Below, piece by piece: positions 6,779 to 41,038 of a stretch of DNA of 64,000 bases. Positions within the stretch are counted from its first letter, which is position 1. The number at the start of each line of letters is the position of its first letter. The stretch spans positions 35,969-99,968 of the forward strand of contig JAXHUE010000003.1 in assembly GCA_034189655.1 (NCBI GenBank), given 5' to 3'. The stretch comes from Chloroflexota bacterium. GTDB lineage: Bacteria > Chloroflexota > Dehalococcoidia > E44-bin15. The notes below the pieces were generated by a model. It was not told where the DNA came from. It worked only from the letters and a program-made list of their open reading frames with translations, and did not search any database. Both the position numbers and the translations under genes were made by a program.

Positions 6779-8251
6779 ATGGTGCCCACCACTGGCCCGA
6801 TGACACGCCGTCCCCTCGTCGAGGAGATCGATGCCCCCTCCGCACTGGAGGCCTTCTCCCTGATCAGGGGGCGTCCCCACAGCTTCTTCCTCGATAGCGG
6901 CATGGGCCGCGAGCGCCTGGGCCGCTACTCGTTCATCGGCAGCGACCCCTTCCTGGTGCTCAAGAGCTACGGCCGCGATGTCTGCCTGGTCGAGGGCTGC
7001 AACGAGACCAGGATGAGCGCCGACCCCTTCGACGTGCTGCGGGAGGTACTGTCCCGGTACGCCCTCGACCCCGGCCCCGCGCCCATCCCCTTCACCGGCG
7101 GCGCCGTGGGCTACCTCGGCTACGACCTGTGCCACTTCGTCGAGCGCCTGCCCCAGACCGCCGCCGACGACCTGGGGCTCCCCGAGCTCTACCTGGCCTT
7201 CTACGACGGTGTCATCGGCTTCGACCACCTGGAGGGGCGGTGCTACGTCGCCGCAAGCGGCCTTCCCTGTGAGGAAGAGGAGCGGCGGCTGCGCCGCGCC
7301 CGGGAGCGCCTCGACGAGCTCAAGGACATCGTGGAGCGGGCCCCGCGGCAGGGAGAGGAGCGCCCCATGGAGCACGGCCAGCCCGCGGCGACCCCTGTGT
7401 CCAGCGTCGTGCCACAGTCAAACTTCACCCACGAGGGGTATGTGCGCGCGGTCGCGGCGGCGCGGGAGTACATCTGTGCCGGCGACATCTTCCAGGTGAA
7501 CCTGTCGCAGCGGTTCCAGGCCCCGCTCGACGTCGCCCCCTTCGAGCTGTACCGGCGCCTGCGCGCCATCAACCCGGCGCCGTTTGCCAGCTACTTAAAC
7601 CTCGACGGGGTGACCATCGTCAGCGCCTCGCCGGAGCGGTTCCTCCGCACGAGCGGCGACCTGGTGGAGACCCGCCCCATCAAGGGGACGAGGCCCCGGG
7701 GGCGCACGCCGGCCCGGGACCAGGCACTGGCCTGGGAGCTGGCGCACAGCGTCAAAGACCGCGCCGAGAACGTGATGATAGTAGACCTGGAGCGCAACGA
7801 CCTGGGGCGCGTGTGCCGCTATGGGACGGTGCGGGTGAGCGAGCTGTGTGCCCTGGAGCGCTATGCCACGGTGTTCCACCTCACCTCCACGGTGGAGGGC
7901 AGGCTGCGCCACGACCGAGACCGCGTAGACCTGCTCAAGGCCACCTTCCCTGGGGGCTCGATCACCGGGGCCCCCAAGGTGCGTGCCATGGAGATCATAG
8001 ACGAGCTGGAGCCCACGCGGCGGGGGGTCTACACCGGCTCCATCGGGTATGTGGGCTTCGATGGAGAGATGGACTTGAACATCGTCATTCGCACCTTCGT
8101 GGTAGCGGGGGGAAAGGCCTACTTCCAGGTAGGAGGGGGCATCGTGTACGATTCCGACCCCGAGGCCGAGTACGTGGAGACGCTGGACAAGGCGAGGGCC
8201 CTCGTCGAGTCGCTTGGGCCCCAGCCGCTCCCGGCACCAGAGGAGAGGTGA
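6779..8251 (+). CDS. pabB: Aminodeoxychorismate synthase component I (chorismate-binding enzyme, PabB/TrpE family)
   Basis: Chorismate-binding domain motifs (NPAPFASYLNL, SASPERFLR, ETRPIKGTRPRG, FPGGSITGAPK, RGVYTGSIGY). Assigned to pab rather than trp because the partner amidotransferase and a class IV aminotransferase (ADC lyase) lie downstream. Confidence 0.75.
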   Translation: MVPTTGPMTRRPLVEEIDAPSALEAFSLIRGRPHSFFLDSGMGRERLGRYSFIGSDPFLVLKSYGRDVCLVEGCNETRMSADPFDVLREVLSRYALDPGPAPIPFTGGAVGYLGYDLCHFVERLPQTAADDLGLPELYLAFYDGVIGFDHLEGRCYVAASGLPCEEEERRLRRARERLDELKDIVERAPRQGEERPMEHGQPAATPVSSVVPQSNFTHEGYVRAVAAAREYICAGDIFQVNLSQRFQAPLDVAPFELYRRLRAINPAPFASYLNLDGVTIVSASPERFLRTSGDLVETRPIKGTRPRGRTPARDQALAWELAHSVKDRAENVMIVDLERNDLGRVCRYGTVRVSELCALERYATVFHLTSTVEGRLRHDRDRVDLLKATFPGGSITGAPKVRAMEIIDELEPTRRGVYTGSIGYVGFDGEMDLNIVIRTFVVAGGKAYFQVGGGIVYDSDPEAEYVETLDKARALVESLGPQPLPAPEER

Positions 8252-11389: not shown

Positions 11390-11484
11390 GGGGTGGTGTG
11401 CCCCTCCCGTCCCAGCCTTGCCCCCTCCCGCCGTAGCTGCTACAATCTGTGTGGGGGGAGTGCCTTTATAAAGGGGAGGGGGCC

Positions 11485-12087
11485 TTGGTCATCATCATCG
11501 ATAACTACGACTCCTTCTGCTACAACCTGGCCCAGTACATCGGGGAGCTGGGCTGGGAGCCCATGGTGTGCCGCAACGACCAGCTCTCACTGGTGGAGAT
11601 CGCGGCCCTGGCCCCGTCCCACATCGTGATCTCTCCCGGGCCGGGCACCCCGCTCGATGCCGGCATCTCCAACGCAGTGATACGCCGCTTTGCCGGCCAC
11701 ATCCCCATACTGGGGGTGTGCCTGGGACACCAGTGCATCGGCCACTGCTTCGGCGGGCACATAGTGCGCACCGTGCCGGTGCACGGCAAGTCCTCCCTCA
11801 TCTACCACGACGGCAAGACGCTGTACCGCGGCCTGGCCAACCCCTTCGAGGCCGGGCGCTACCACTCCCTGGCCGTCGCCCCGTGGGGCCTGCCCGCGGA
11901 GCTTGAGCTCTCGGCGCAGACCGAGACCGGGGAGGTCATGGGGGTGCGCCACCGCCAGTTCGTGGTCGAGGGCATCCAGTTCCACCCCGAGTCCATCCTC
12001 ACCGCCTGTGGCCACGATGTGCTGCGTGCCTTCCTGGGCATAGAGCATCCGCGGTGGCAGGCCGCCCTGGGGGGGCCCCATGGCTAG
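11485..12087 (+). CDS. pabA: Aminodeoxychorismate/anthranilate synthase component II (class I glutamine amidotransferase)
   Basis: LVIIIDNYDSFCYNLAQY N-terminus and GVCLGHQCIG catalytic Cys motif, with HPES near the C-terminus. Likely TTG start at 11485, 4 nt after GGGGAGGGGG; the ORF-track start at 11449 adds 12 non-homologous residues. Confidence 0.8.
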   Translation: MVIIIDNYDSFCYNLAQYIGELGWEPMVCRNDQLSLVEIAALAPSHIVISPGPGTPLDAGISNAVIRRFAGHIPILGVCLGHQCIGHCFGGHIVRTVPVHGKSSLIYHDGKTLYRGLANPFEAGRYHSLAVAPWGLPAELELSAQTETGEVMGVRHRQFVVEGIQFHPESILTACGHDVLRAFLGIEHPRWQAALGGPHG

Positions 12088-12931
12088 CTGGGTGTACGTA
12101 GACGGGGCCCTGGTGCCCGGCGACCAGGCCGCCGTCTCCCCCCTCGACCGCGGCCTGCTCTACGGCTACGGCCTGTTCGAGACCGTGCGCGCCTACGAGG
12201 GGCGCTGCTTCCGCCTGGGGCGGCACCTGGAGCGGCTCATGGCAGGTGCCGAGCGGCTCGCCCTCGCCGCCGCGCTCGACCGCGATGGCCTGGAGCGGGC
12301 GGTGTATCGCACCATGGAGGCAAACGGCCTCCGCGATGCCCGGGTGCGGCTCACCGTCACCGCCGGCGTAGGCGAGCGGGGGCTCTCCCCACCGCTGTCG
12401 GGGGCTGCCACCGTCATCGTAGTCGCCGAGGGGCTGGCCGCGCCGGGCCACGACGAGGGGGTGAGCGCCGCCATCGTCGGTGCGAGGAGGAACAGCGCCT
12501 CGCCGCTCGCCGGGATAAAGTCGTTGAACTACCTGGAGGCCCTGGTGGCCCACGCCCAGGCCCTGGCCCAGGGTGCCCAGCAGGCCATCATGTTAAACGA
12601 GCGCGGCCACGTCGCCGAGGGCAGCACCAGCAACATCTTCCTGGTCTCCGCAGGGAGACTGCTCACCCCGGCGCCGGCCTGTGGCATCCTCTGTGGCATA
12701 ACCAGGGAGGCCGTGCTGGAGTGTGCCGCCGACCTCGGCATCGAGGCCGCCGAGGTGGAGCTATCCCCGGAGGCCCTCTTCGCCGCCGACGAGGTCTTCC
12801 TCACCAGCTCCATAGTCGAGCTTGCGCCCGTGGCCCGCGTGGACGGCCGGGCCATCGGCGACGGCGGGCGTGGCAAGGTCACCTCCCTGCTCGCCGCCGC
12901 CTACCGGGAGCTGGTGCGGCGGGAGAGATGA
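12080..12931 (+). CDS. pabC: Aminodeoxychorismate lyase (class IV PLP aminotransferase fold)
   Basis: 283 aa, class IV aminotransferase features (YGYGLFETVRAY, EGSTSNIFLV, GITR). Size and operon context with pabA (8-nt overlap) favour ADC lyase over IlvE. Confidence 0.65.
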   Translation: MASWVYVDGALVPGDQAAVSPLDRGLLYGYGLFETVRAYEGRCFRLGRHLERLMAGAERLALAAALDRDGLERAVYRTMEANGLRDARVRLTVTAGVGERGLSPPLSGAATVIVVAEGLAAPGHDEGVSAAIVGARRNSASPLAGIKSLNYLEALVAHAQALAQGAQQAIMLNERGHVAEGSTSNIFLVSAGRLLTPAPACGILCGITREAVLECAADLGIEAAEVELSPEALFAADEVFLTSSIVELAPVARVDGRAIGDGGRGKVTSLLAAAYRELVRRER

Positions 12932-14100
12932 GCAGGAGGAACGCGGCGCGGCTGCTCCCCCTCTATGCCGTAGGCTTCCTGGGCTATGTCGGCTTCAGCC
13001 TGCTCTTTCCCGTCGTCCCCCAGTATGCCGACTCCGTGGGCACGCCCCTGGCACTGGTGGGGGTGGCGGTGGGGATGTTCTCCTACGTCACCGCGGTGGC
13101 CATGGTGCCCTTTGGCCTCCTGTCAGACCGGGTGGGACGGCGTCTCCTCCTGGTGGTAGGGCTGGTGCTGTACACAGTGGCCCCGCTGCTCTACCTCTGG
13201 GCCGACGGCCCGCTTCTGCTCATCGTGGTGAGGGGCATACACGGGCTGGCCTCGGCGGCCTTCATCCCCGCGGCCAACGCCATCGTGGTGGACATGGCCC
13301 CGCCCCAGAGGCGGGGCGAGGCCCTGGGGTGGTTCACCGGTGCCACCATGATGGGCTTCATCGTCGGCCCGGTAACGGGCGGCTTCCTCTTGAGCGCCTT
13401 CGGGTTCGATGCCGTCTTCTACGCGTGCAGCCTCACCTCCCTCATCGCCCTGGTGCTGGTGCTCCCCTGGCTTAAGGGCATGCCGGAGAGCCCCGCCGCC
13501 GCAGAGCGCAGCGAGGGCACCTGGGCCTGGATGGGGCAGCGGCGGGCCATCGGTGCCCTGCTCACCCCCCTGTTCATCACCTTTGGGTCGGGCACCATCG
13601 TGGCCTTCATGCCCCTGTATGGGGAAGAGCTGCTCATAACCGCTGCGCAGGTAGGGGTGATGATAACCGCGGTCTATGCCGCCTCGGCGCTGGTGCGTGC
13701 CCCGGCGGGGCGGCTCTCCGACCGCATGGGGAGGGGGCGGGTCATCCTCTCAGGCTTCGCTGCGAGCGCCCTCTTCGTCGCCCTCATCGCCGTGCCCACG
13801 TCCTTCCCGCTGCTGGTGCTGGTGGGCGTTGCCTTCGGGCTGGGCATGGGGCTGGCCATGCCCGCGGCATTCGCCCTGGTCGCCGACCTGGCCCCGCCTG
13901 ACAGGCGCGGGCTGGCCATGGGGGCCGCCAGCAGCTCGCTACAGGCGGGACTGGCCCTGGGGGCGACGGCCATGGGGGGCGTGGCCGTGGCCGTGGGCTA
14001 TGCCCCCATGTTCGGGGCGTGCGGCGCCGTCATGGCCCTGGGCCTTGCGGTGGTGTACCTCTTGCTGCGCCGCCGCGGGGACAGCGGTCGGCAGGGGTGA
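12928..14100 (+). CDS. MFS transporter
   Basis: 12 predicted TM helices. MFS loop motifs GLLSDRVGRRLLLV and GRLSDRMGRGRVI. ATG overlaps the pabC stop (ATGA). Confidence 0.75.
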   Translation: MSRRNAARLLPLYAVGFLGYVGFSLLFPVVPQYADSVGTPLALVGVAVGMFSYVTAVAMVPFGLLSDRVGRRLLLVVGLVLYTVAPLLYLWADGPLLLIVVRGIHGLASAAFIPAANAIVVDMAPPQRRGEALGWFTGATMMGFIVGPVTGGFLLSAFGFDAVFYACSLTSLIALVLVLPWLKGMPESPAAAERSEGTWAWMGQRRAIGALLTPLFITFGSGTIVAFMPLYGEELLITAAQVGVMITAVYAASALVRAPAGRLSDRMGRGRVILSGFAASALFVALIAVPTSFPLLVLVGVAFGLGMGLAMPAAFALVADLAPPDRRGLAMGAASSSLQAGLALGATAMGGVAVAVGYAPMFGACGAVMALGLAVVYLLLRRRGDSGRQG

Positions 14101-14171
14101 CCGCGGGGCGAACGCGGCGTTCTAGCATCTCGGAAAACGGTGCACGCAGAGGGCCTAGTGGGCAATATTCG

Positions 14172-14209
14172 TTGACCGCCCTGGGTGAGGCGTGCTATCA
14201 TGCTATAAT
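14172..14209 (+). promoter_or_regulatory. Candidate sigma70 promoter upstream of ftsY (TTGACC - 18 nt - TATCAT, with a second TATAAT 2 nt downstream)
   Basis: Sequence match only, located 20-57 nt upstream of the ftsY ATG. Confidence 0.4.
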
Positions 14210-14228
14210 CTCTGCTGTCGGAGTGACG

Positions 14229-15149
14229 ATGGGCGAGCGGGAACAGATGGAGAAGGGGGTGAAGCGCTCCCGGGAGGGCTGGTTCGGCCGGGTGATGCGC
14301 CTCTTCGACCGTGCCGCCATCGACCAGGGGCTGTGGGACGAGCTGGAGGAGCTGCTCATCGCCGCCGACGTCGGGGTGGCCACCAGCGCCAGGCTGCTGG
14401 GGCGGGTGCAGGAGCGGGTGGGCCGGGAGCGGCTCCAGGAGGCCTCCCAGGTCAGGGCCGTGCTGCGCCAGGAGATGGTGGCCATGCTGCGGGTGGACGG
14501 TGCCCCTTCCGGGGGGGGCGTCAGGCTGGCGCCGTCGCCGCCCACGGTGGTGCTGGTGGTGGGGGTCAACGGGGTGGGCAAGACGCTCTCCATCGCCAAG
14601 CTGGCCCACATGCTGAAAGGGGAGGGGAGGCGGGTGGTGCTCGCCGCCGCCGACACATTCCGCGCCGCGGCCGTCGAGCAGCTCCAGGTGCTGGGCAGGC
14701 GCATCGGGGTGGAGGTCATCGCCCAGGGGCCCGGCGCCGACCCCGGGGCCGTGGTGTACGACAGCCTGGAGGCGGCGAGGGCGCGCGGCGCCGACGTGGT
14801 AATCGTCGATACCGCGGGCCGGCTGCACACCAAGTTCAACCTGATGGAGGAGCTCAAGAAGATCAGGCGGGTGGCCTCTCGCAGCGACCCCGAGGCCCCC
14901 CACGAGGTGTTCCTGGTGCTCGACGCCACCACCGGGCAGAACGGCCTGCTCCAGGCGCGGCGCTTCACCGAGGCGGTGGAGGTCACCGGCGTCTTCCTCA
15001 CCAAGCTCGATGGCACTGCCAAGGGGGGCATCGTGCTCGCCATATGCGACGAGCTCAAGGTGCCCATACGCTTCATCGGAACCGGCGAGTCGGTGGCAGA
15101 CATCGCCCCCTTCGACGCCGACTCGTTTGTCGAGGTGCTCTCGTCGTGA
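14229..15149 (+). CDS. ftsY: Signal recognition particle receptor FtsY (short form, NG domain only)
   Basis: [15 protein letters not shown] (G1), DTAGRLH (G3), [10 protein letters not shown] (G4). ~306 aa. Confidence 0.9.
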
Positions 15150-17509
15150 GCGGCGTGACCTTCGCCTCGATGTGGTGGCTCACGGTCGAGCTCCTGGGGC
15201 TCATCGCCCTGCCGCTCACCCTGGTGGTGTTCAAGCGCCTCCCCGACAGGGGCTATGCCTTCAGCAAGGCGCTGGCCATACTGCTGGTCTCTTTTATCTT
15301 GTGGCTCCTGGCCTATGCCCACATCCTGCCCAACACCTGGTGGGCCATCATACTCATCATAGCCGCGGGTGCTATAGGCTCCCTGGTGCTGGCGGTGCGC
15401 CGTCGCCGCGAGCTCGCCGAGTTCTTCAGGCGGGAGCGCACCATCATCATCGCCACCGAGGCCGTGTTCCTGCTCGCCTTCGTCGCCTATCTCGCGATAC
15501 GCGCCTTCAACCCGGACATCCTCTTCGGCGAAAAGCCCATGGACTTCGCCTTCATGAACGGCATCTTGAGGAGCACCTACTTTCCCCCCATCGACCCGTG
15601 GCTTGCCGGCTACAGCATCAGCTACTACTACGGCGGCTACCAGATAATGGCCATGCTCACCATGCTTACCGGCGTGCCCGCGGCGGTGTCGTTCAACCTC
15701 TCCCTGGCACTGGTCTTCGCCCTGACCACCGTCGGCGCCTTCAGCGTGGTCTACAACCTGGTACGCATGGGCAGGGGTGGGGTCAGGGCGGCGGTGGGGA
15801 TGGGCCTGGTCGCCGCCGGCCTGCTTTTAGTCCTGGGCAACCTGGTGGGGGTGCTGGAGATGCTGCATGCCCACGGGTTCGGCAGCGCCGGGTTCTGGGA
15901 GTGGGTGGGCATCGCCGGGCTGGACCACCCCTATAGCGGCGTGACCTGGTACCCCAACGAGCACTGGTGGTGGTGGCGCTCGACGCGGCTGATAAACACC
16001 CTGTCCCCCGGCGTCAGCAACGGTCTGGACTACACCATCACGGAGTTCCCCGCCTTCAGCTTCCTCTTCGCCGACCTCCACCCCCACCTCATGGCGCTGC
16101 CCTTCTCCCTGCTCACCATGGCGATGTGTCTGGAGCTCATGGTGTCGGCGCAGTCGCCGGGGGTGGCCTGGTTCAAGGCCAACTGGCCCCGCTTCCTGGT
16201 CTTTGCCATCGCCCTGGGGTCGCTCGGCTTCATCAATACCTGGGACATCACCACCTATAGCCTGCTCTTCGCACTGGCCGCGCTCATCGGGGGCTACCTG
16301 GCCTGGGGGCGGATGAGCCTCGGCCTGCTCAAGGACGTGGCCCTGTTCGTCGCTGCCCTCGTTGCCTGTGCCTTCGTGCTCTACCTCCCCTTCTACATCG
16401 GGCTCGACACCCAGGTCCAGGGCATCGGACTGGTGGGCGATATCGACACCCAGCCGCACCACTTCTTCCTCTTCTGGGGGGTCCTGCTGTTCATCACCGT
16501 GTCCTTCGTGGTGGCCCAGTCGTGGGGCGCGCTCAAGGAGGGCCTGCCGTCGTGGGGGTATGTGCTCCTGGCGGTGGCGGTGCCCGTCCTGCCGTTTGTC
16601 ATATGGGCCGTGGCCAGCCAGGCCGGCGGTGTGGGCCTCCTCGCCGCGATGGGCAAGCTGTGGCACGTGCTTCCCTTAATAATAGTGCTCATACTGGCCC
16701 TCCTGGTCATCGTGAAGAGGGCGCAGCGCGTCGTGGCCAGCGACGACGGGGACGGCGGTGAGGAGCGGGCCTCCATCTTCGCCATGGTGCTCCTGTTCAC
16801 CGGCTTCCTCCTCGTCATGGGCTGCGAGCTCTTCCTGGTGAAGGACTTCTTCTATCCCTGGCGCATGAACACCATGTTCAAGCTGTACTACATGGCGTGG
16901 CTGGTGCTCGCCATCTCAGCGGCCTATGGCCTCTACTGGATCGCGGTGCACTGGCGGCCGGCCTCACTCGCTGCCATGGTAGGTCGCGCCACCTGGTGGG
17001 TGGTCTTGGGCTTCCTCATCCTGGGCAGCCTCATCTACCCGGTGGCGGCCTCCATCACGATGTACGATTTCAACCGCTCGCCCACGCTCAATGGCCTGGC
17101 CTTCGTGGAGAGCGCCCGTCCATCGGAGTACGAGGCCATCGCCTGGCTCAACAGCGATGTCGAGGGGGCGCCGGTCATCGTGGAGGCCACCGGCGGGTAC
17201 TTCACCGACTACTTCCGCATATCGGCGCGCACCGGGCTGCCCACCATCCTGGGCTGTCCCGGGCACGAGCGCCAGTGGCGTGGCGGGGACGAGCTCTTCG
17301 TCGGCCGCGAGGCAGACATCGATGCCATCTACGAGGGCGAGGACATGGCCCAGGTCGAGGCCCTCTTCCAGGAGTACGATGTCACCTACGTCTACGTGGG
17401 CCACCTGGAGCGGGAGCAGTACGGTGAGGCAGTGGCCGACCGCTTCGCCGGCTTCATGGACGTGGCCTTCGCCAACGAGGGCGTCACCATATACCAGGTG
17501 AGGGAGTAG
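15146..17509 (+). CDS. DUF2298 / TIGR03662 (Chlor_Arch_YYY) family integral membrane protein
   Basis: Polytopic membrane protein of ~790 aa with the hallmark [10 protein letters not shown] triple-Tyr motif. GTG at 15146 overlaps the ftsY stop. The ORF-track 14192 start is an artefact of an open frame overlapping ftsY. Confidence 0.7.
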
Positions 17510-17511
17510 CG

Positions 17512-19263
17512 GTGGAGAGGGTGAAGGCGTGGGCCGTGCGCTGGGCGCGCCCCCTGCTCAACTGGGAGGTTGCGGCATACGTCTTTCTAGCGGTGGTGGC
17601 GCTGGGGATGCACCTGTGGGCCCTGGACGCCCGCGCCTTCCAGTACGATGAGACCCTGCACGCCTTCTATAGCTGGAAGCTGTATACCGGGGAGAGCTAC
17701 CAGCACAGCCCCATGATGCACGGCCCCTTCCAGTTCTACGGCACCGCGGCGTTGTTCCACCTCTTCGGCGATAGCGATGTTACGGCGCGCCTCCTCCCCG
17801 CCCTCTTCGGCACCGCGCTGGTGGCGCTGCCGTACCTTCTGCGTCGCCAGATGGGCCGCTGGGGGGCCATGGCCGCTGCTGTCCTGCTGGCCTTCTCCCC
17901 CACGCTGCTCTACTTCGGGCGCTTTGCCCGCAACGACATCTACATCGTGTTCTGGACGCTGCTCCTGGTGGTGTGCCTGTGGCGCTACATCGACGAGGGC
18001 AAGTCGCGCTACCTGTACATCGGGGCCGCCGCCTTGAGCTTGAGCTTCTGCACCAAGGAGGTGAGCTGGATCACCACCGGCATCATCGGCCTCTTCCTCC
18101 TCATCTGGGCCGGCCGTGAGCTCGTCGGCCGGGTGCGGCGCCGTGTCGACCTGAAGGCCCTCTCGCCACCCGCCGACTACCTGATCGTCGTCGGCACCCT
18201 CTCCCTGCCCCTGTTCGCCGCCTTCTGCCAGCTCATCCCCGGCGTGGACATCGATGGCGGGGCGGTGTGGCAGAAGGCGCTGGTGGTGGGGATACTCTTC
18301 GCGGTATCGCTGGCCGTCGGGCTACGCTGGGACTGGCGGCGCTGGTCGATCGCGGCCATCATCTTCTACGGCATCTTCTGCCTGTTCTACTCGTCGTTCT
18401 TCTCCAACGTAGATGGCCTGGCCAGCGGGATATGGGGCTCGGTGGACTACTGGCTGGCCAACCGCGACGCCCCGCGCATCGTGCAGCCCCTGTTCTACTA
18501 CCCCATGGTGCTGGCCACGTACGAGTTCCTGCCCCTGCTCTTCGGCCTGGTCGGCGGGGTGTACTACGCGATAAAGGGGGACGCCTTCTCCCGCTTCCTG
18601 GTGTACTGGGCGGCGATGGCCCTCATCCTCCAGGTGTGGTCCGGGGAGAACACCGCCTGGCTCTCCGTCCACATCGCCCTGCCCCTCATCCTGCTCGCCG
18701 CGATGTTCATCGGCCGCGCACTGGCCGGAGGCTGGCCCGGGCGCTGGGCGCGGGTGGTGCCCGCCGCCGTCGTCCTGGCGCTTGCCGTCGTCTTCCCCTT
18801 CAGCGTGCACGTCGCCCTCCAGGCGAGCTACAATGTGAGCGACGAGCCGCCGCAGATGCTGGTCTACGCCGGCATGAGCCACGAGATGCGCCAGGTCGTG
18901 GACCAGATAGAGGGGCTGGCCGCAGACAGCGGCAAGGGGACAGGGTTGAGGATAAGCGTCGATAACCCCCTCTACTGGGACTGGGCGTGGTACATCAGGG
19001 ACTACGACGTGCAGTGGCTGTACGCCACCGACCTGGTCCCCGACGGGGACGTGCTGCTGCTGGCCCCGGAGAACGAGGCCGCCTTCGAGCCCCACCTGGG
19101 CGGCTACGGCGAGGGGCAGCACTTCCACGAGCGTATCTGGTTCCCCGAGGAGTACCGCGACCACGGCATCGGGTGGTGGTGGCGCTACTTCTTGAGCAAG
19201 GAGACCGAGGGCCCCTACTGGTCGAGCGAGAGCATCGTCTACGTCGCCCAGGGGGTGCCGTGA
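17512..19263 (+). CDS. TIGR03663-family GT-C-fold membrane glycosyltransferase-like protein (PMT/ArnT-like, 2-TM-rich, 583 aa)
   Basis: N-terminal region with ...DETLHAFYSWKLYTGESYQHSPMMHGPFQFY, typical of GT39/ArnT-like dolichyl-phosphate-mannose transferases. The family is characteristically adjacent to TIGR03662. Confidence 0.65.
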   Translation: MERVKAWAVRWARPLLNWEVAAYVFLAVVALGMHLWALDARAFQYDETLHAFYSWKLYTGESYQHSPMMHGPFQFYGTAALFHLFGDSDVTARLLPALFGTALVALPYLLRRQMGRWGAMAAAVLLAFSPTLLYFGRFARNDIYIVFWTLLLVVCLWRYIDEGKSRYLYIGAAALSLSFCTKEVSWITTGIIGLFLLIWAGRELVGRVRRRVDLKALSPPADYLIVVGTLSLPLFAAFCQLIPGVDIDGGAVWQKALVVGILFAVSLAVGLRWDWRRWSIAAIIFYGIFCLFYSSFFSNVDGLASGIWGSVDYWLANRDAPRIVQPLFYYPMVLATYEFLPLLFGLVGGVYYAIKGDAFSRFLVYWAAMALILQVWSGENTAWLSVHIALPLILLAAMFIGRALAGGWPGRWARVVPAAVVLALAVVFPFSVHVALQASYNVSDEPPQMLVYAGMSHEMRQVVDQIEGLAADSGKGTGLRISVDNPLYWDWAWYIRDYDVQWLYATDLVPDGDVLLLAPENEAAFEPHLGGYGEGQHFHERIWFPEEYRDHGIGWWWRYFLSKETEGPYWSSESIVYVAQGVP

Positions 19264-19291
19264 TTGCATGCCGGTACCCGTTGTACTATAA
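19264..19291 (+). promoter_or_regulatory. Candidate sigma70 promoter (TTGCAT - 16 nt - TATAAT) for the flippase-like gene
   Basis: Near-consensus hexamers 40 nt upstream of GTG 19331. Confidence 0.45.
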
Positions 19292-19330
19292 TGGGCCGAA
19301 TAGAGGGCAGGCGTCTTTCCGTGAGGGGGG

Positions 19331-20365
19331 GTGAGGGCGTTTAGGAACAGACGGTTCTGGATAGGCCTGGTCATCACGCTGGTGTTTCTGGCCCTCTTCC
19401 TCTACCCCCTGCTGCGGACGGGCTTCGCCGACATGGGCCGGGCCCTCGCCGAGGCCAACTACCTCTATCTCATCCCCGCGCTCGCCGTATACTTCGTGGG
19501 CGTCTTCCTGCGCTCCGTCCGCTGGAGCTACCTGCTCCTGCCCCTGGGCCGCTTCTCCCCCTTCCGCCTCTTCCCGCTCGTCGTCATCGGCTTCATGGTG
19601 AACAACGTGCTGCCGGCGCGCCTGGGCATCGTGGCCCGGGCCATCATCCTGGGGGAGCGGGAGCGCATGAGCAAGATGGCCGCCGGGGGCACCATGGTGG
19701 TGGAGCAGGTGTTCGATGGCGTGACCCTCCTCTTCTTCATCGCCGTGGTCGCCATCTTCGGGGTATCACTGGCCGGGGTGTTGCAGGGCACGGTATACGT
19801 GGTGGCCGGCCTCTTCATATTGGCCCTGGTGCTGTGCCTGGCCCTGGCCTCGTCGGAGCGGCTGGCGCAGTGGGTGGTATCGCTCGTCGTGCGCCTGCTG
19901 CCCCATCGCTGGCGGGAGCGGGTGGGGCTGTGGCTTGTGCGGCTGGTGGAGGGCCTGGGTATCATGCGCAGCCCGTGGCGGCTCCTGGTGGTGTTCCTGC
20001 TCTCGAACCTGGTGTGGCTCGCCGAGGCGGGCACCTTCTACTTCGTCGCCCTCTCCTTCGACCTGGGGCAGCCCTTCTACGTGCTGCTGCTGGCGACGGC
20101 GGTGGCCAACCTGGCGTGGGCGCTGCTCATGACCCAGGGCGGCCTGGGCTCCTTTGACCTGGCCGCACAGCAGACGCTGGTGTTCTTCGGCGTCGGCGTG
20201 GGGCTGGCCAGCTCCTACGTGCTGGTGCTCCACGCCGTGCTCCTCCTGCCCATGACCGCTCTCGGGTTCGTGTTCCTGTGGCTGGAGAACCTCTCGCTGT
20301 CACGCCTGGTGTCACGTGGCGAGGAGCTCTCGGCGCAAGAAGATACAGCGGAGGGCGAGACATGA
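19331..20365 (+). CDS. Flippase-like / lysylphosphatidylglycerol-synthase TM-domain (UPF0104) membrane protein
   Basis: 8 TM helices. Architecture and length match the UPF0104/TIGR00374 flippase-like family commonly paired with membrane glycosyltransferases. Confidence 0.55.
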   Translation: MRAFRNRRFWIGLVITLVFLALFLYPLLRTGFADMGRALAEANYLYLIPALAVYFVGVFLRSVRWSYLLLPLGRFSPFRLFPLVVIGFMVNNVLPARLGIVARAIILGERERMSKMAAGGTMVVEQVFDGVTLLFFIAVVAIFGVSLAGVLQGTVYVVAGLFILALVLCLALASSERLAQWVVSLVVRLLPHRWRERVGLWLVRLVEGLGIMRSPWRLLVVFLLSNLVWLAEAGTFYFVALSFDLGQPFYVLLLATAVANLAWALLMTQGGLGSFDLAAQQTLVFFGVGVGLASSYVLVLHAVLLLPMTALGFVFLWLENLSLSRLVSRGEELSAQEDTAEGET

Positions 20366-21678
20366 GGGTCGGCATAGTTGGCGGCGGCATCGCCGGGCTC
20401 ACCGCGGCCTACGAGCTGGGCCAGCGGGGCCACACCCCCGTGGTCTTCGAGAAGCGGCCTGAGCTCGGCGGCCAGGCGGCCACCATAGAGGTCGGTGGGG
20501 AGCGCCTGGAGGGGTTCTACCACCACATCTTCACCAGTGACCAGGAGGTACGCCAGCTCATCGATGAGCTGGGGCTGGGGGGAGACCTCCGCTGGCTCGA
20601 CTCTAGGGTAGGCTTCTACCACAGGGGGAGGGTATACCCCTTCGTCACCCCGCTGGACCTGCTGCGCTTCCGCCCCTTACGTCCCGTCGACCGGGTGCGC
20701 CTGGGGCTGGCCTCGCTGTACCTGAGGCGCTACCGGGACTGGCAGCGCCTCGAGGGGGTCACCGCGCGCGAGTGGGTGACGCGCTATGCCGGCAGGCGCA
20801 GCTACGAGGTGGTGTGGGGCCCCATGCTGCGCAACAAGTTCGGCGACAGCCTCGATGAGGTGGGCATGGTGTGGCTGTGGGGCAAGATACACCTGCGCCT
20901 CACCTCGCGCCAGGGGGAGCACGAGCAACTGGGATACCTCGATGGGAGCTACGGCCGGCTCATCGATGCCCTGGGCGAGGCCGTCCTCGGCTCAGGCGGG
21001 GAGATTTACACGGAGGCGACGGCCACCGCCGTCGCCGTCGAGGGGGGGAAGGTGGTGGGGCTGCGGGTGGGGGGAGAGGTGCACCCCTGCGACGCCGTGA
21101 TCGCCACCGTGTCATCGCCGGACTTCCTCCAGCTCGCACCTCCGCTGCCCGCGGAGTATGGCGCAATGCTGCGGATGGCGCGCTACCAGTCGGCGGCGTG
21201 CCTGGTGCTCGCCTTGAACCAGCCCTTCATGGACTACTACTGGCTGAACATCGGCGAGAGCACCATGCCCTTCGTCGCCGTCATCGAGCACACCAACTTC
21301 GTCGAACCGTCGCGGTACCGGGGACGGCGCATCCTGTATGTCTCCAACTATCTCTCCAGTGAGAGCCCTCTCTACGGCATGGGCCCACAGGGGCTTCTGG
21401 ACGAGTACCTGCCCTACCTGCAGCGCATAAACCCCCGCCTCGACCTCTCCTGGGTGGAGGAGAGCCATGTCTTTCGCGAGGAGTGGGCGCAGCCCATCGT
21501 CACCACCGACTACCTGCGGCAGATACCCGACCATCGCACCCCGGTCCCCGGCCTCTACCTGGCCAACACCACCCAGATATACCCTGAAGACCGGGGGATG
21601 AACTACAGCGTGCGCCTGGGACGGCAGATAGCCGATATCGTCACCGCCGACGGCGCCCGCCACGGCGAGGAGGGTTGA
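20362..21678 (+). CDS. FAD-dependent oxidoreductase (amine oxidase/phytoene desaturase-like)
   Basis: N-terminal Rossmann MRVGIVGGGIAGLTAAYEL...FEKRPELGG. The start overlaps the previous stop (ATGA). Confidence 0.7.
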   Translation: MRVGIVGGGIAGLTAAYELGQRGHTPVVFEKRPELGGQAATIEVGGERLEGFYHHIFTSDQEVRQLIDELGLGGDLRWLDSRVGFYHRGRVYPFVTPLDLLRFRPLRPVDRVRLGLASLYLRRYRDWQRLEGVTAREWVTRYAGRRSYEVVWGPMLRNKFGDSLDEVGMVWLWGKIHLRLTSRQGEHEQLGYLDGSYGRLIDALGEAVLGSGGEIYTEATATAVAVEGGKVVGLRVGGEVHPCDAVIATVSSPDFLQLAPPLPAEYGAMLRMARYQSAACLVLALNQPFMDYYWLNIGESTMPFVAVIEHTNFVEPSRYRGRRILYVSNYLSSESPLYGMGPQGLLDEYLPYLQRINPRLDLSWVEESHVFREEWAQPIVTTDYLRQIPDHRTPVPGLYLANTTQIYPEDRGMNYSVRLGRQIADIVTADGARHGEEG

Positions 21679-21902: not shown

Positions 21903-22760
21903 ATGTACCGTATAGTGCACCGAGAGGACCTGGTCCCCAACATACACCTGTTCGACGTTGAGGCCCCGCTGGTGGCACGCAAAGGCCAGGCGGGGCAGTT
22001 CGTCATCGTGAGGGTGGGCGAGACCGGGGAGCGCATACCGCTCACCATCGCCGACTGGGACCGGGAGGCCGGCACCATCACCATCGTGTTCATGGAGGTA
22101 GGTGCCACCACGCGCAAGCTGGCCACCCTGGGCGTCGGCGACCACCTCGATAACTTCGTGGGGCCCCTGGGGTTGCCCACCCACATCGAGCGCTTCGGCA
22201 CGGTGTGCTGTGTCGGCGGCGGTGTGGGGGTGGCCCCCATCATGCCCATCGCACGGACGCTCAAGGAGGCCGGGAACCGGGTGGTCTCCATCATGGGGGC
22301 CAGGAACAGAGACCTCCTCTTCTGGGAGGACCGCCTCCGTGAGGTGAGTGACGAGCTCATCGTGACCACCGACGATGGCTCCTATGCCCGCAAGGGGGTG
22401 GTCACCGAGCCCCTCAAGGAGCTCCTGGAGGGGGACGAGCGCATAGACCTGGTGATCGCCATCGGGCCGGTGGTGATGATGAAGTTCTGCTGCCGCACCA
22501 CAGAGCCCTTCGGGGTAAAGACCATGGTGAGCCTAAACCCCATCATGGTAGACGGTACCGGGATGTGCGGCTGCTGCCGCGTCGAGGTAGGTGGCGATAC
22601 CAGGTTCACCTGCGTCGATGGCCCCGACTTCGACGGCCACCAGGTGGACTGGGACCTCCTGCTCTCCCGGCAGCGGATATACCTTGACGAGGAGCGAAAG
22701 TCCGTGGAGCACTGGGAGCACCAGTGCCAGTCCCTAGGCCGAGAGGTACGTCATGGCTAA
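21903..22760 (+). CDS. nfnA: NfnA/SudB-type ferredoxin:NADP oxidoreductase small subunit (FAD/NAD-binding, 2Fe-2S)
   Basis: Dihydroorotate dehydrogenase electron-transfer-subunit-like fold. C-terminal Cys cluster GMCGCCRV...FTCVDGP. GGAGGG RBS. Followed by a GltD-like partner. Confidence 0.75.
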   Translation: MYRIVHREDLVPNIHLFDVEAPLVARKGQAGQFVIVRVGETGERIPLTIADWDREAGTITIVFMEVGATTRKLATLGVGDHLDNFVGPLGLPTHIERFGTVCCVGGGVGVAPIMPIARTLKEAGNRVVSIMGARNRDLLFWEDRLREVSDELIVTTDDGSYARKGVVTEPLKELLEGDERIDLVIAIGPVVMMKFCCRTTEPFGVKTMVSLNPIMVDGTGMCGCCRVEVGGDTRFTCVDGPDFDGHQVDWDLLLSRQRIYLDEERKSVEHWEHQCQSLGREVRHG

Positions 22761-24150
22761 GATAGACCTAAACCGCATGTCGATGCCCAAGCAAGACCCC
22801 GAGGTGCGGGCCCACAACTTCAACGAGGTGGCGCTGGGGTACACCGAGGAGATGGCCAGGGCGGAGGCCGCCCGCTGCATCCAGTGCAAGAAGCGAAACT
22901 GCGTCACCGGCTGCCCCGTAGATATCGACATCCCTGAGTTCATCGCCGCAGTTGCCGAGGGTAACATGCCAGAGGCGGTGCGCGTCCTGAAGGGCAAGAA
23001 CAGCCTGCCCGGCATCTGCGGCCGGGTGTGTCCCCAGGAGAGCCAGTGCGAGGAGACCTGCTCCCTGGCCAAGAAGGGCGCCCCCATCGCCATCGGGAGA
23101 CTTGAGCGCTACGTGGCCGACTGGGAGCTGGCCCAGGGACGGATGGAGCGCCCCCAGATGGCCTCCTCGTCGGGGAAGCGAGTGGCCGTGGTGGGGTCGG
23201 GGCCGGCGGGGCTCACCGCCGCCGCTGACCTGGCCAAGCTGGGACACCAGGTCACCATGTTCGAAGGCCTCCACGTCGCCGGGGGGGTGCTGATGTATGG
23301 CATCCCTGAGTTCCGCTTGCCCAAGCACATCGTGCAGCAGGAGGTGGAGTTCGTGAAGTCGCTGGGGGTGGAGCTGGTGCTCGATGCCGTGGTGGGCAAG
23401 ACCATGACCGTGGACGAGATCATGGCCGACGGCTATCACGCCGTGTTCCTGGGCACCGGGGCCGGGCTGCCCATGTTCATGAACATACCGGGAGAGAACT
23501 TAAACGGCATCTACTCCGCCAACGAGTACTTGACCCGCACCAACCTGATGAAGGCCTACCTCTTCCCCGACTACGAGACCCCCATCAAGCTGGGGCAGCG
23601 GGTGGCGGTGGTCGGCGGGGGCAACGTGGCCATGGACTCAGCGCGCTGCGCCCTGCGCCTCGGTGCCGAACAGGTATACATCATCTACCGCCGCTCCGAG
23701 GCCGAGATGCCGGCGCGCCGCGAGGAGGTAGAGAACGCCCAGGAGGAGGGCGTCATCTTCAAGCTGCTCACCAACCCCAAGCAGTTCCTGGGCAACGACC
23801 AGGGATGGGTAGTGGGCGCCGAGTGCTACGAGATGGAACTGGGGGAGCCCGACGCCAGTGGCCGCCGTCGCCCCGTGGTCAAGGAGGGCAGCGAGCACAC
23901 CATCGATGTCGATACCGTGGTGGTGGCCCTGGGCACCACCCCCAACCCCCTGGTTCCCACCACCACCGAGGGGCTGGAGGTCACCAAGCGGGGCACCGTG
24001 GTCGCCGACGAGGAGACGGGGAAGACGGTGAAGACCGCCGTGTGGGCCGGCGGCGATGTGGTAACCGGCGCCGCCACCGTGATCAGCGCCATGGGGGCGG
24101 GGAAGCGGGCCGCCGCCTCCATCGATACCTACCTGCGTAACGGGGCCTGA
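22753..24150 (+). CDS. nfnB: NfnB / glutamate synthase small-subunit-like (GltD family) NADPH-dependent FAD oxidoreductase with 2x[4Fe-4S]
   Basis: CIQCKKRNCVTGCPV...CGRVCPQESQCEETC and GKRVAVVGSGPAGLTAAADLAKLGH. Confidence 0.8.
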   Translation: MAKIDLNRMSMPKQDPEVRAHNFNEVALGYTEEMARAEAARCIQCKKRNCVTGCPVDIDIPEFIAAVAEGNMPEAVRVLKGKNSLPGICGRVCPQESQCEETCSLAKKGAPIAIGRLERYVADWELAQGRMERPQMASSSGKRVAVVGSGPAGLTAAADLAKLGHQVTMFEGLHVAGGVLMYGIPEFRLPKHIVQQEVEFVKSLGVELVLDAVVGKTMTVDEIMADGYHAVFLGTGAGLPMFMNIPGENLNGIYSANEYLTRTNLMKAYLFPDYETPIKLGQRVAVVGGGNVAMDSARCALRLGAEQVYIIYRRSEAEMPARREEVENAQEEGVIFKLLTNPKQFLGNDQGWVVGAECYEMELGEPDASGRRRPVVKEGSEHTIDVDTVVVALGTTPNPLVPTTTEGLEVTKRGTVVADEETGKTVKTAVWAGGDVVTGAATVISAMGAGKRAAASIDTYLRNGA

Positions 24151-24468: not shown

Positions 24469-27400
24469 TCACGCCCGCTCCACGCGCACCGCGGCCACCT
24501 TGAGCTCTGGTATCTTGGCCACCGGGTCCAGGCCTGGGTTGGTGACGATATTGGTACGGCTCTCGGTGAAGTGGAAGCTCATGGAGACCACCCCCGGCGG
24601 CGAGCCATCGGTCACGCGGGCGTGAGCGAAGACCTCCCCCCGCCGCGAGGCAACGCGCACCCTGTCGCCGCCGCCTATGCCCAGCCTCTCGGCGTCCGCG
24701 GGGTTGATCTCCACCAGCTCCTGCCCCCGTATCTGGTTTAAGCCGGCCACGCGCCTGGTCATGGTGCCGGTGTGGTACTGGTTGAGCAGGCGCTCCGTGG
24801 TGAGCACCAGGGGGTAGTCGCTGCTGGGCTCCTCCAGGGGCGGCCGGTAGGTGAGCGGGATGAAGCGGCCCAGGCCGCGGGAGAAGAGCTGGGTGTGGAG
24901 GATGGGCGTCCCCGGGTGGTCGTCGAAGGGGCAGGGCCAGGCCAGGCCCCCCTCCTCCAGCCGCTGGTAGGAGATGCCGCCGTAGGCCGGGGAGAGCCCG
25001 GCGATCTCGTCGAAGACCTGCGAGGGGTGGGAGAAGTCGAAGCCCCCGGCCCCCATGCGCTGGGCGATGCGGCACACTATCTGCCAGTCGGGCAGGGCCT
25101 CTCCCACCGGGTCGATGGCCCGGCGCACCCGCTGCACGCGGCGCTCGGTGTTGGTGAAGGTGCCGTCCTTCTCGGCGAAGCTCGCTGCCGGCAGCACCAC
25201 GTCGGCGAGCTGGGCGGTCTCGCTCAAGAAGATGTCCTGCACCACCAGGAAGTCCAGGTTCTTCAAGGCCTGCTCCACGTGGGTGGCGTCGGGCTCACTC
25301 AAGAGCGGGTTCTCTCCCACCAGGTAGATGGCGCGCACCTCGCCGCGGTAGGCGGCATCTACCATCTCGGTGAGGGTGAGACCGGGCGCGGGGTTTAGCG
25401 TCACATCCCAGGCCGACTCGAACTTCACCTGGAGGTTGGGGTCGGCCACGCCCTGGTAGCCAGGGTAGACGTTGGGCAGGGCGCCCATGTCACAGGCCCC
25501 CTGCACGTTGTTCTGCCCGCGGAGGGGGTTCACCCCCGTCGAGGGGCGGCCCACGTTGCCGGTGAGCATTGCCAGGTTGGCGGTGGCGATCACGTTATCG
25601 GTGCCGTGGGAGTGCTGGGTGATGCCCATGGCGTAGAGGATGGTGGCCGGGCTGCCCTCGGCGTAGAGGCGGGCGGCCTCGGCGACGCGCTCCTGGGGCA
25701 CGCCGGTGAGCTGCTCCACTCGCTCTGCGTCGAACCACTCGAGCGACTCCCGGAACTCGGCATAGTTCTCGCAGCGCTCCTCGATGAACTGCTTGTCGAT
25801 CAGGCCCTGCTCCACGATGACCCGCATCATCCCCATGAGCAGTGCGACGTCGCTCCCCGGCCGCTGCTGCAGCCAGACGGTGGCGAAGCGGCACAGGTCG
25901 ATGTGGCGCGGGTTGGCCACGATGAGAGCGGCCCCCCTCCTCACCGCGTCCTTTATCTCGAGGCCGATGATGGGGTGGCTCGCCGTGGTATTGGTGCCGA
26001 TGGCGAAGATACAGCGGGCCTGGCCGATCTCGGCGATGGAGTTGGTCATGGCCCCGCTGCCGAAGCTCTGGGCCAGCCCGGAGACGCTGGGGGCGTGGCA
26101 CAGGCGGGCGCAGTGGTCGACGTTGTTGGTGCCCATCGCGGCACGGGCGAACTTCTGCAAGAGGTAGTTCTCCTCGTTGGTGCAGCGCGCCGAGGCGATC
26201 AGGGCAAACCTCTCGCCCCGGTACTGGGGGAGCCTGCTGGCGATGAGCTCCAGGGCCTCGTCCCACGAGGCCGGCACCAGCCCCCCTGCTTTCCTGACGA
26301 GGGGGGTGGTGAGCCTCTCGGGGTGGCTCACGAAGTCGGCGATGCCGAAGCGGCCCTTGACGCATGTCTTGCCCCGGTTCACCGGGCTCTCCGGGTCGCC
26401 GCGCACGTCGACGATGGTGTTGCCGACGACGCCCAGGTACAGGCTACAGCCCACGCCGCAGTAGGGGCAGACGGTCTTCACCTCGGCCAGTGGCGGCCGG
26501 CTCCCCTTGGACACCAGCGCCCCCACCGGGCAGCTGGCGATGCACAGGCCGCACGACTCGCAGGTGGTATCGGCCAGGGAGCGGGCCCCAGGCGGCACTG
26601 CCACCCGGTAGGCGAAGCTCCACGCCCCCACGCCCTGCACGGAGAGGCAGGTGCGGGCACAGCGGGCGCACATGATGCACTTATTGGCGTCGATCTCCAC
26701 GAAGGGGTGGGAGCTGTCCACGGGATAGTGGTAGCCTGCCTCCCTGGCGAGCGAGGGGGAGACCCCGTAGTCAGCGGCGAGGTGGCGCAGGGTGCAGCTC
26801 TCCACGGCGCCGCAGCCGCAGGCAAGGCAGCGCTGCGCCTCCTTCTGTGCCAGGTCCTGGGTGTAGCCGCGCTCTATCTCCTGGAAGTTGCCCTGTCTCT
26901 CGTCGGGGCGGAGCCGGGGCATGGCGCGCCGCGGCTGCCGCTCTATGGTGGCGAACTCCTCGCCCCCCAGCTCATCGAGCTCGCCCTTGCGCCAGTTGAA
27001 GGGCTTCGTGGCATCGGCGAGCGGCTCCCCGCGCAGGTAGCGGTCGATGGAGATGGCCGCCTTTCGACCCGCGGCCATGGCGTCCACGGCGCGCGCCGGC
27101 CCGGTGACGGCATCGCCGCCGGCAAAGACCCCCTCGATGTCGGTCTGGAGCGTCTCCTCGTCGGCCACGATGACGTCGCCCCTGCCTATCTGGAGGCCGT
27201 CGGCGCTGAAGGAGATGTCGGGGCCCTGCCCGATGGCGGCGATCACCGAGTCCACGGGCACGGTGAACTCGGAGCCGGGGATGGGCTCGGGGCGGGGGCG
27301 CCCGCTCGCGTCGGGCTCGCCCAGGGCCATGCGGGTACAGCTCAGGCTGGCCACCCGGCCGTTGCGGCCGTTCACCGTGGTCGGCGCCGCCAGGAAGTGG

Positions 27401-38478: not shown

Positions 38479-38619
38479 CTCCTGTACAGGCCCGGCCCCG
38501 CGGCGGAAGACAGACGCCCCCTCACGTCATCGACATCGAAGAGGTGCCTGCGCAGCGAGGGCCCAGGCACATATGCCCGGGCCCATGCCTTTACCCACCC
38601 GGTGCCGTGCCGGCGGGCG

Positions 38620-39975: not shown

Positions 39976-39990
39976 TTCGTGCTCCCTCCT

Positions 39991-40956: not shown

Positions 40957-41038
40957 TCCTTTCTAAAGACCTGTCATAAAACAAGGGCCGAGGAACGACC
41001 CTTGTCTATGGGTGTTTCCTCCGGGCGACGGCCCGTGT

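Follow-up and report, generated by a model that had tools for sequence, protein, structure and literature searches.

A conserved four-gene cluster of Dehalococcoidia encoding two proteins with predicted GT-C folds, a flippase-like protein and a flavoenzyme, and its possible role in lipid-carrier glycosylation

The four genes and the predicted structures of their products

The subject of this study is a cluster of four genes, designated here G1 to G4, found in a Chloroflexota bacterium of the class Dehalococcoidia (contig JAXHUE010000003.1 of assembly GCA_034189655.1). The whole analysed stretch of 64,000 nucleotides (hereafter the window) has a GC content of ~67%. An earlier reading of this DNA, made from the letters alone (the sequence-only reading), had described genes for two large membrane proteins, a flippase-like protein and a flavin adenine dinucleotide (FAD) oxidoreductase, and had suggested a lipid-carrier-based glycosylation or cell-envelope modification pathway. 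The four open reading frames (ORFs) were found at the coordinates proposed there, all in one direction, and the evidence presented below indicates that the cluster most likely decorates the cell surface using a lipid-carried sugar. The genes and their upstream neighbour are as follows:

15146-17509, plus strand: G1, DUF2298 / TIGR03662 'YYY' protein, 787 aa (family matches)
17512-19263, plus strand: G2, TIGR03663 / Agl23-family protein, 583 aa (family matches)
19331-20365, plus strand: G3, stand-alone MprF-type flippase-like domain protein (PF03706 / UPF0104 / 'PplT'), 344 aa
20362-21678, plus strand: G4, PRK07233-family FAD enzyme, 438 aa (family matches)
14229-15149, plus strand: ftsY, signal recognition particle receptor (SRP54 and SRP54_N Pfam matches), upstream neighbour outside the proposed functional set

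The four family assignments of the sequence-only reading were all borne out, with scores far above the curated cut-offs. The membership of the two large membrane proteins in TIGR03662 and TIGR03663, on which that reading had made itself dependent, is clear: G1 matches TIGR03662 with 545.7 bits (cut-off 300.25; model positions 7-727 of 727) and PF10060 (DUF2298) with 382 bits, and G2 matches TIGR03663 with 286.7 bits (cut-off 126.25), as well as the PMT_2 and PMT Pfam models. G3, with ~8 estimated transmembrane (TM) helices, is a full-length match to PF03706 (LPG_synthase_TM; 150.7 bits, model positions 2-302 of 302) and also matches TIGR00374 (82.2 bits; cut-off 43.2). Flippases of the PF03706 family are known for aminoacyl- and glycosyl-phospholipids (PMC5898192; bioRxiv PplT preprint).

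G4 matches PRK07233 (NF005560; 511.2 bits, cut-off 252) and the Amino_oxidase model PF01593, carries an N-terminal GxGxxG FAD-binding site (GGGIAGL, residues 7-13) and has no predicted TM helix. These features identify it as a predicted cytoplasmic FAD enzyme of the amine-oxidase / phytoene-desaturase / HpnE-like fold group. It scores below the cut-offs for HpnE (100.2 bits vs 283), phytoene desaturase (44.5 vs 569) and protoporphyrinogen oxidase TIGR00562 (28.1 vs 97.85), and its match to UDP-galactopyranose mutase is confined to the Rossmann segment (residues 5-68).

The junctions between the genes are tight, with one exception. The sequence-only reading had placed start/stop overlaps at 15146, 17512 and 20362 and regarded all four genes as overlapping or coupled. 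At 20362 the G3 stop and the G4 start do overlap (ATGA), and we propose that these two genes are translationally coupled. The candidate G1 start GTG 15146 overlaps the ftsY stop (TGA, 15147-15149), although GTG 15155 is the better match to the N-termini of homologues; ATG 15170 is a further possible start. At 17512 there is no overlap: the G2 start GTG, preceded by a GGGAG Shine-Dalgarno sequence, lies 2 nt past the G1 stop (TAG, 17507-17509). G2 and G3 are separated by a spacer of 67 nt, so the description as overlapping or coupled does not apply to them. Two promoter-like elements were noted:

14172-14201, plus strand: promoter-like TTGACC-18-TATCAT with TG in front, from a consensus scan, just 5' of ftsY
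19265-19293, plus strand: possible internal promoter TTGCAT-17 nt-TATAAT in the G2-G3 spacer, of consensus resemblance only and read by eye from the sequence

The upstream element lies directly 5' of the probable ftsY start (ATG 14229); ftsY is probably in the same transcript as the cluster, and ftsY, G1 and G2 may share one transcript. The element in the spacer was not reported by the consensus scan because its -35 hexamer matches at 3 of 6 consensus positions. It is a possible promoter for G3-G4, which would fit the separability of the two gene pairs in other genomes.

The motif highlighted in the sequence-only reading, [10 protein letters not shown], which bears YYYGG, is present at residues 157-166 of G1 (nt 15614-15643); we take the YYYxG motif to be the hallmark of the TIGR03662 / PF10060 ('Chlor_Arch_YYY') family. 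In a 40-homologue alignment Y161 and G164 are invariant and Y162 is conserved in at least 90% of the sequences. AlphaFold (AF2) models of G1 and G2 were each built on a 40-sequence alignment. The G1 model is of high confidence (pLDDT 90.6, pTM 0.94), and hydropathy, the positive-inside rule and the model helices give an estimate of ~16 TM helices, namely 3 extra N-terminal helices and a ~13-helix core; behind these, at the C-terminus, is an alpha/beta domain (residues 640-787) predicted to be extracellular. In a Foldseek search of the PDB, the matches with probability 1.0 comprise archaeal AglB (E 7.7e-7), the C-mannosyltransferase DPY19, human and yeast STT3, and AftA (target TM-score 0.52), the chains being 7e9s, 7zlg, 8pn9, 6ezn and 8if8. 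The C-terminal domain alone matches the globular domain of AglB-S2. The global TM-scores are low (0.3-0.4), and the predicted GT-C fold of G1 therefore rests on the Foldseek probability, the E-values and the consistency of the hit list.

The AF2 model of G2 (pLDDT 87.8, pTM 0.89) likewise predicts a GT-C fold with a C-terminal alpha/beta domain (residues ~441-583), placed outside the cell. Foldseek matched it to 24 GT-C chains at E <= 0.001 with probability 1.0; the best matches, with query TM-scores of ~0.5, are STT3A, AglB, PglB, ALG12 and ALG9, and AftD and EmbA/B/C are also among the matches, as are ArnT and Pmt4 (probability 1.0, query TM-score ~0.38). G2 is identical to protein P0001 of a 76.8-kb ENA metagenome contig. 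The conserved loops of the two proteins are:

15527-15643, plus strand: first long predicted extracytoplasmic loop of G1 (residues 122-178), candidate catalytic loop, with E129, D133, D150 and the YYYGG motif
15962-16087, plus strand: second long loop of G1 (residues 243-314), lower confidence, with conserved WWWW, TITEFP and DLHPH motifs
17644-17736, plus strand: first loop of G2 after TM1, with the invariant D46-E47 opening the first loop helix and an H70-G71-P72 motif

The sequence-only reading had proposed a search for a GT-C acidic motif in the first extracytoplasmic loop of the TIGR03663 protein, and such a motif is there: D46-E47 of G2 is invariant and lies just after TM1, a spot which we take to be the catalytic-acid position of GT-C enzymes (PMT, ArnT, STT3). 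The residues H70, G71, R93, R111, R137 and R140 are also invariant among the 40 sequences and P72 is conserved in at least 90% of them; the invariant DE dipeptide, the HGP tripeptide and the N-terminal arginines are presumably features of the whole TIGR03663 family. In G1, E129, D133 and D150 form invariant or near-invariant columns. Its first long outer loop would correspond to external loop 1 (EL1) of GT-C enzymes, judged from topology rather than from residue-level superposition.

In the second long loop of G1, between predicted core helices 3 and 4, I298 and E300 of the TITEFP motif are invariant. The motif resembles the TIxE/SVSE motif of STT3, which sits in EL5, between TM9 and TM10. The likeness is probably coincidental because the predicted position of the loop differs, and the equation of the two motifs was set aside, the WWD motif being absent as well. 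No WWD motif is conserved in the G1 or G2 alignments (40 sequences each), and the STT3 Pfam model PF02516 gave no match, even at E <= 10, across 40 G1 homologues. Because of these two negative results G1 was not classed as an oligosaccharyltransferase. Neither sequence nor profile searches against PDB chains gave a meaningful match for G1, G2 or G3. When the G1 and G2 families were compared profile to profile, no significant similarity emerged (probability 2.4%); the two GT-C proteins are therefore not recent paralogues.

Two variations among homologues were observed. Some loci (L009, L014 and L082) carry two or three tandem G1 (DUF2298) paralogues, with 28-32% identity to G1 of the window. 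Several G2 homologues (P0071, P0079, P0085, P0108, P0109 and P0117) are 800-1010 aa long and contain additional NHL, SBBP or SGL beta-propeller repeats, which may bind acceptors if they are located outside the cell.

Conservation of the block and contexts of the flavoenzyme family

A scan of one genome per GTDB species, seeded with a narrow alignment of G2 homologues, revealed at least 579 stretches encoding G2 relatives, and the best 80 loci, reaching down to ~35% G2 identity, were retained. All but two of these are labelled Chloroflexota, Dehalococcoidia or SAR202 (the remaining two being labelled 'bacterium' only and Acidobacteriota). Homologue searches gave only close Chloroflexota relatives among the matches listed, and the close relatives are metagenome-assembled genomes of Dehalococcoidia/Chloroflexota. 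The sequence-only reading had called the first two families a pair restricted to Chloroflexi and Archaea; the present data bear on the Chloroflexota side of that statement.

The sequence-only reading had predicted that the four genes would co-occur in other genomes, and tblastn of the window proteins against the retained loci demonstrated that they do. Of the 65 loci with at least 3 kb of upstream sequence, 59 have G1 immediately in front of G2. Downstream of G2, among the 51 loci with at least 4 kb on that side, G3 and G4 are each present in 39 and both in 37. All four genes are present in 31 of the 46 loci with both flanks. The G3-G4 gap is mostly below 100 nt. The G2-G3 gap reaches 7.8 kb, the inserts including leucine-rich-repeat (LRR) proteins and a probable mobile element, and in some Chloroflexia loci G1-G2 are followed by pheS/pheT, without G3-G4. 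The block is thus made up of two tight pairs (G1-G2 and G3-G4), which usually travel together. In locus L030 four LRR lipoprotein-like genes (11968-17794) lie between G2 and G3 on the opposite strand, and L076 has one such gene.

ORF clustering revealed a wider conserved order, in which rnc, smc and ftsY precede G1, G2, G3 and G4, followed by NuoE-, NuoF- and formate dehydrogenase (FDH)-like genes; in 45 of 55 loci, ftsY precedes the first G1 on the same strand at a distance of no more than 600 nt. In L081, a 2.8-Mb metagenome contig, the G1-G2-G3-G4 block occurs without ftsY and with quite different flanks. A gene of glycosyltransferase family 2 (GT2; product of 240-256 aa) accompanies the cluster in 6 of 82 related loci, located either within it or next to it; in L002 and L082 it is placed between G3 and G4.

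The G4 family was also traced beyond the cluster. A search of 1.84 billion representative proteins gave 1196 homologues at E <= 1e-30, and the best 150 were inspected for fusions. G4-like domains were found fused with (i) a PF03706 flippase domain (P0451), (ii) a GtrA_DPMS_TM domain and two GT2 domains (P0479), (iii) a GT2 domain (P0495) and (iv) S-adenosylmethionine-dependent methyltransferase domains (P0410 and P0458).

The genomic contexts of distant G4 homologues (33-40% identity) were analyzed for nine representatives, seven of which are on contigs of at least 8.9 kb, the other two contigs being too short to be of use. L083 and L084, two almost identical contigs that come from sister samples, count as one context, which leaves six distinct contexts. 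A GT2 gene lies at most three genes from the G4-like gene in all six. The nearest GT2 protein carries 2-3 TM helices at its C-terminus, or forms a fusion with the flavoenzyme, in five of the contexts. The contexts are composed of (i) a 9-TM protein of unknown function, GT2, rmlABCD and then the G4-like gene (Acetivibrio), (ii) GT2 followed by a PplT-G4 fusion (L086), (iii) a PMT_2 protein, three unannotated multi-TM proteins, two amine-oxidase genes and GT2 (L087), (iv) GT2, the G4-like gene, a methyltransferase, GT2 and DUF2298 (L088), (v) GT2, the G4-like gene and then YfhO (L090) and (vi) a GT2-G4 fusion between methyltransferases, with an additional GT2 in L083 (L083/L084). The G4 family is fused to GT2 and GtrA-like domains and stands beside GT2 and GT-C genes; the flavoenzyme is therefore tied to polyprenyl-phosphate-sugar glycosylation.

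A gene of a short-chain dehydrogenase (SDR; cluster c14) follows G4 in L027 and L044, and is located just downstream of G2 in L040 and L060. It is the sole hint of a possible reductase partner for an oxidase, in the manner of the DprE1/DprE2 pair.

Proposed glycosylation pathway and alternative explanations

The lipid-carrier glycosylation suggested by the sequence-only reading has been strengthened by the predicted GT-C folds of G1 and G2, the GT2 genes of related loci and the flavoenzyme fusions. We favour, with somewhat better than even confidence, the view that the cluster belongs to a polyprenyl-phosphate-sugar glycosylation system similar in type to the three-component systems, of which it would encode the components in the membrane and at its outer face, together with one tailoring enzyme. 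We infer the biochemical steps, and with them the identity of carrier, sugar and acceptor, as follows. A GT2 polyprenyl-phosphate glycosyltransferase, encoded outside the window, would load a monosaccharide onto polyprenyl phosphate at the cytoplasmic face of the membrane. The soluble G4 would then alter the lipid-linked intermediate, still at the cytoplasmic face, by a redox change either on the sugar (as DprE1 does on decaprenyl-P-ribose) or on the isoprene chain of the carrier. G3 would move the product to the outer leaflet, where G1 and G2, with their predicted GT-C folds, would pass the sugar on to acceptors outside the cytoplasm, either surface proteins or an envelope glycan. Catalysis would fall to the acidic residues in the first outer loops of G1 and G2, and the C-terminal globular domains would engage the acceptor.

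Known systems resemble the proposed one in several ways. Three-component systems (GtrB/GtrA/Gtr*; CsbB/GtcA/YfhO; Citrobacter O-antigen ribofuranosylation, GT136) follow the same logic of a lipid-linked monosaccharide donor, a flippase and an outer GT-C transferase, and the distant G4 homologue located between GT2 and YfhO genes (L090) adds to the likeness. Cytoplasmic epimerases that tailor the lipid-linked sugar before flipping are established in these systems (PMC11127046). The flippase of the cluster, however, is of the MprF/UPF0104 type, whereas theirs are of the GtrA, SMR or MATE type; the cluster has two unrelated GT-C proteins and its GT2 is usually encoded elsewhere; and the proposed tailoring enzyme is an amine-oxidase-fold flavoprotein rather than an SDR or DprE1-type protein.

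G1 and G2 share with STT3/AglB/PglB, their top structural matches, the predicted GT-C fold, the estimated ~13-helix core and a C-terminal globular domain predicted to be outside the cell, but they lack sequence-level similarity and the WWD(Y/W)G motif, and the predicted position of the TITEFP loop of G1 is not that of EL5. The Arn pathway (ArnC, ArnD, ArnE/F, ArnT) has the order proposed here: a lipid-linked sugar is enzymatically modified on the cytoplasmic side of the membrane and flipped before a GT-C enzyme uses it. The order is the same in the decaprenyl-P-arabinose pathway (DprE1/DprE2, Rv3789, Emb/Aft), where one of the sugar-altering enzymes is a flavoprotein (PMC11127046). G4, however, belongs to a different flavoprotein fold group than DprE1, and a DprE2-like partner is not consistently present, the SDR gene following G4 in few loci.

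On the archaeal side, G2 fits the family model of Agl23 of the haloarchaeal Agl22/Agl23 system. UPF0104 proteins are predicted lipid flippases, and in Archaea their genes neighbour those of a PMT/STT3-like enzyme (arCOG00563) and an AglD-like GT2, a trio of similar make-up to the cluster that was predicted by Makarova and co-workers to be a glycosylation module (PMC5898192). In contrast to the archaeal modules described in the literature, the cluster has a bacterial (Dehalococcoidia) host and adds DUF2298 and the flavoenzyme. Members of the PF03706 family pair with the cytoplasmic enzyme making the lipid that they presumably flip, as in MprF and GpgSDF (bioRxiv PplT preprint). The flippase domains of MprF, GpgF and HexF are paired with or fused to a lipid-making enzyme, and G3 is likewise paired with G4 (the two being fused in P0451). 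The partner of G3, however, is an oxidoreductase and not an aminoacyl- or glycosyltransferase, and flipping by G3 is predicted only.

Several observations weigh against the proposed pathway. Its first step depends on an unseen gene, since no GT2 is encoded in the 64-kb window and nearby GT2 genes are present in only 6 of 82 loci; a GT2 gene encoded with those of the flippase and the GT-C protein would be expected of a three-component system. The published activity of the Agl23 family is the translocation of lipid-linked oligosaccharides, not transfer (PMC11182771). The closest characterised relatives of G4 (HpnE and phytoene desaturase) work on isoprenoid chains rather than on sugars. The distant G4 contexts, although consistent, number six and are biased toward long contigs. 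The G1-G2 and G3-G4 pairs are separable, as the insertions between G2 and G3 and the loci without G3-G4 demonstrate. Finally, the conservation of the block could partly be inherited gene order, because the rnc-smc-ftsY backbone precedes it in most loci.

The biochemistry of Agl23 leads to an alternative in which G2 would mainly serve to scramble or flip a lipid-linked glycan, G1 the only transferase, acting on surface proteins in the manner of an oligosaccharyltransferase, and G3-G4 would serve another lipid. TIGR03663, which the sequence-only reading had regarded as a family of unknown function, is now named the Agl23 family (PMC11182771); its NCBIfam name, 'flippase activity-associated protein Agl23', follows work on Haloarcula hispanica. 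Agl23 had earlier been proposed to be a hexose-P-dolichol flippase, and the purified H. hispanica protein (HhAgl23) translocates M5GN2-PP-Dol in liposomes and suppresses a yeast rft1 deletion (PMC11182771). The alternative also agrees with G1-G2 being the tightest pair and with AglB and STT3 being the best structural matches of G1, whose C-terminal domain also matches the globular domain of AglB. Nevertheless, we consider it unlikely: nothing known of translocation needs the full GT-C fold, the invariant DE at the canonical catalytic position or the C-terminal domain predicted for G2, the cluster already includes a dedicated flippase-like protein (G3), and G1 has neither the oligosaccharyltransferase WWD motif nor a match to the STT3 Pfam model. 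Because of that fold and that dipeptide, the published flippase role may be only part of the function of the Agl23 family.

The cluster might instead consist of two unrelated modules, G3-G4 making and flipping a modified membrane or isoprenoid lipid unlinked to glycosylation, with the adjacency of the pairs being a gene order inherited in Dehalococcoidia behind ftsY. The isoprenoid substrates of the families closest to G4, the aminoacyl- and glycosyl-phospholipids handled by flippases of the G3 type, the inserts of up to 7.8 kb and the G1-G2-only loci, the rnc-smc-ftsY backbone and the TATAAT-containing spacer in front of G3 would all suit this explanation. It is made improbable by the intact four-gene block in the different flanks of L081, by the fusions of the G4 family to GT2 and GtrA-like domains and its distant GT2 and GT-C neighbours (PMT_2, YfhO, DUF2298), and by the GT2 genes placed between G3 and G4 in L002 and L082. 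We give a smaller chance still to G1 and G2 building or polymerising an envelope polysaccharide, the cluster being a synthase set for a cell-wall polymer, in the manner of the Emb/Aft arabinosyltransferases, instead of decorating proteins. AftA is among the best matches of G1, AftD and EmbA/B/C match G2, and the tandem G1 paralogues are reminiscent of the Emb/Aft families; the top matches, however, are protein-modifying enzymes (AglB, STT3, DPY19), and the fold cannot separate protein from glycan acceptors. This last explanation differs from the proposed pathway only in the acceptor, and the two agree in mechanism.

Within the polyprenyl-phosphate-sugar pathway, a bolder proposal, to which we assign a low probability, is that the PRK07233 flavoenzyme is an unrecognised tailoring enzyme of polyprenyl-phosphate donors, e.g., one that turns the carrier into a dolichol type by saturating its alpha-isoprene unit. 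The enzyme saturating the alpha unit of archaeal dolichol phosphate is unknown (PMC5088576). If true, such a carrier would suit G1 and G2 as archaeal/eukaryote-like GT-C enzymes, and DUF2298 would represent a new class of surface-protein glycosyltransferase in Dehalococcoidia. Searches for DUF2298, TIGR03662, TIGR03663, PRK07233 and the 'YYY domain' found almost no literature, and in what was found neither a GT-C fold of DUF2298, nor the full GT-C architecture of the Agl23 family, nor the recurrent embedding of PRK07233 enzymes is described. Amine-oxidase-fold flavoenzymes recur among, or fused to, GT2, flippase and GT-C genes, which suggests that lipid-linked sugar donors undergo a modification not yet described. 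Little is understood of the cell envelope of Dehalococcoidia, an abundant class that is difficult to cultivate and includes the marine SAR202 group; the four-gene block, which this class has kept, is a strong candidate for a core pathway of envelope glycosylation.

Flanking genes

The flanks of the cluster contain housekeeping genes, those upstream being pabB, pabA and genes of a class IV aminotransferase and a major facilitator superfamily transporter, followed by ftsY. Three further features of the window were distinguished:

8442-11321, plus strand: 959-aa acidic repeat protein, between pabB (6779-8251) and pabA (11449-12087)
21903-24150, plus strand: Fe-S/NAD-binding protein and GltD-like flavoprotein (NfnAB- or sulfide-dehydrogenase-like pair), downstream flank
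24469-28536, minus strand: 1355-aa fusion of 2Fe-2S, GltD-like, 4Fe-4S and molybdopterin (formate-dehydrogenase-type) domains

The acidic repeat protein (D 10.9%) has an N-terminal membrane anchor or signal and ~100-aa repeats, and gave no Pfam match; the GC content of its region is 0.615, compared with ~0.68. The sequence-only reading had judged its N-x-S/T count to be near compositional expectation, which proved incorrect: the 16 sequons are about twice the 7.7 +/- 2.6 obtained in composition shuffles, the counts being non-independent because of the repeats. The gene is not conserved beside the cluster among the related loci (in L082, a close relative, only a 95-aa ORF is found at its position), and a glycosylation link between the cluster and this protein remains speculative, as it had been called at the outset.

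In more distant relatives, NuoE-, NuoF- and FDH-like genes follow G4 in place of the downstream pair and the fusion present in the window. Further downstream, on the minus strand, the window carries Wood-Ljungdahl genes (36526-43264), namely those encoding the corrinoid activase RACo (36526-38478) and the beta subunit of acetyl-CoA synthase/carbon monoxide dehydrogenase (ACS/CODH; 41039-43264).

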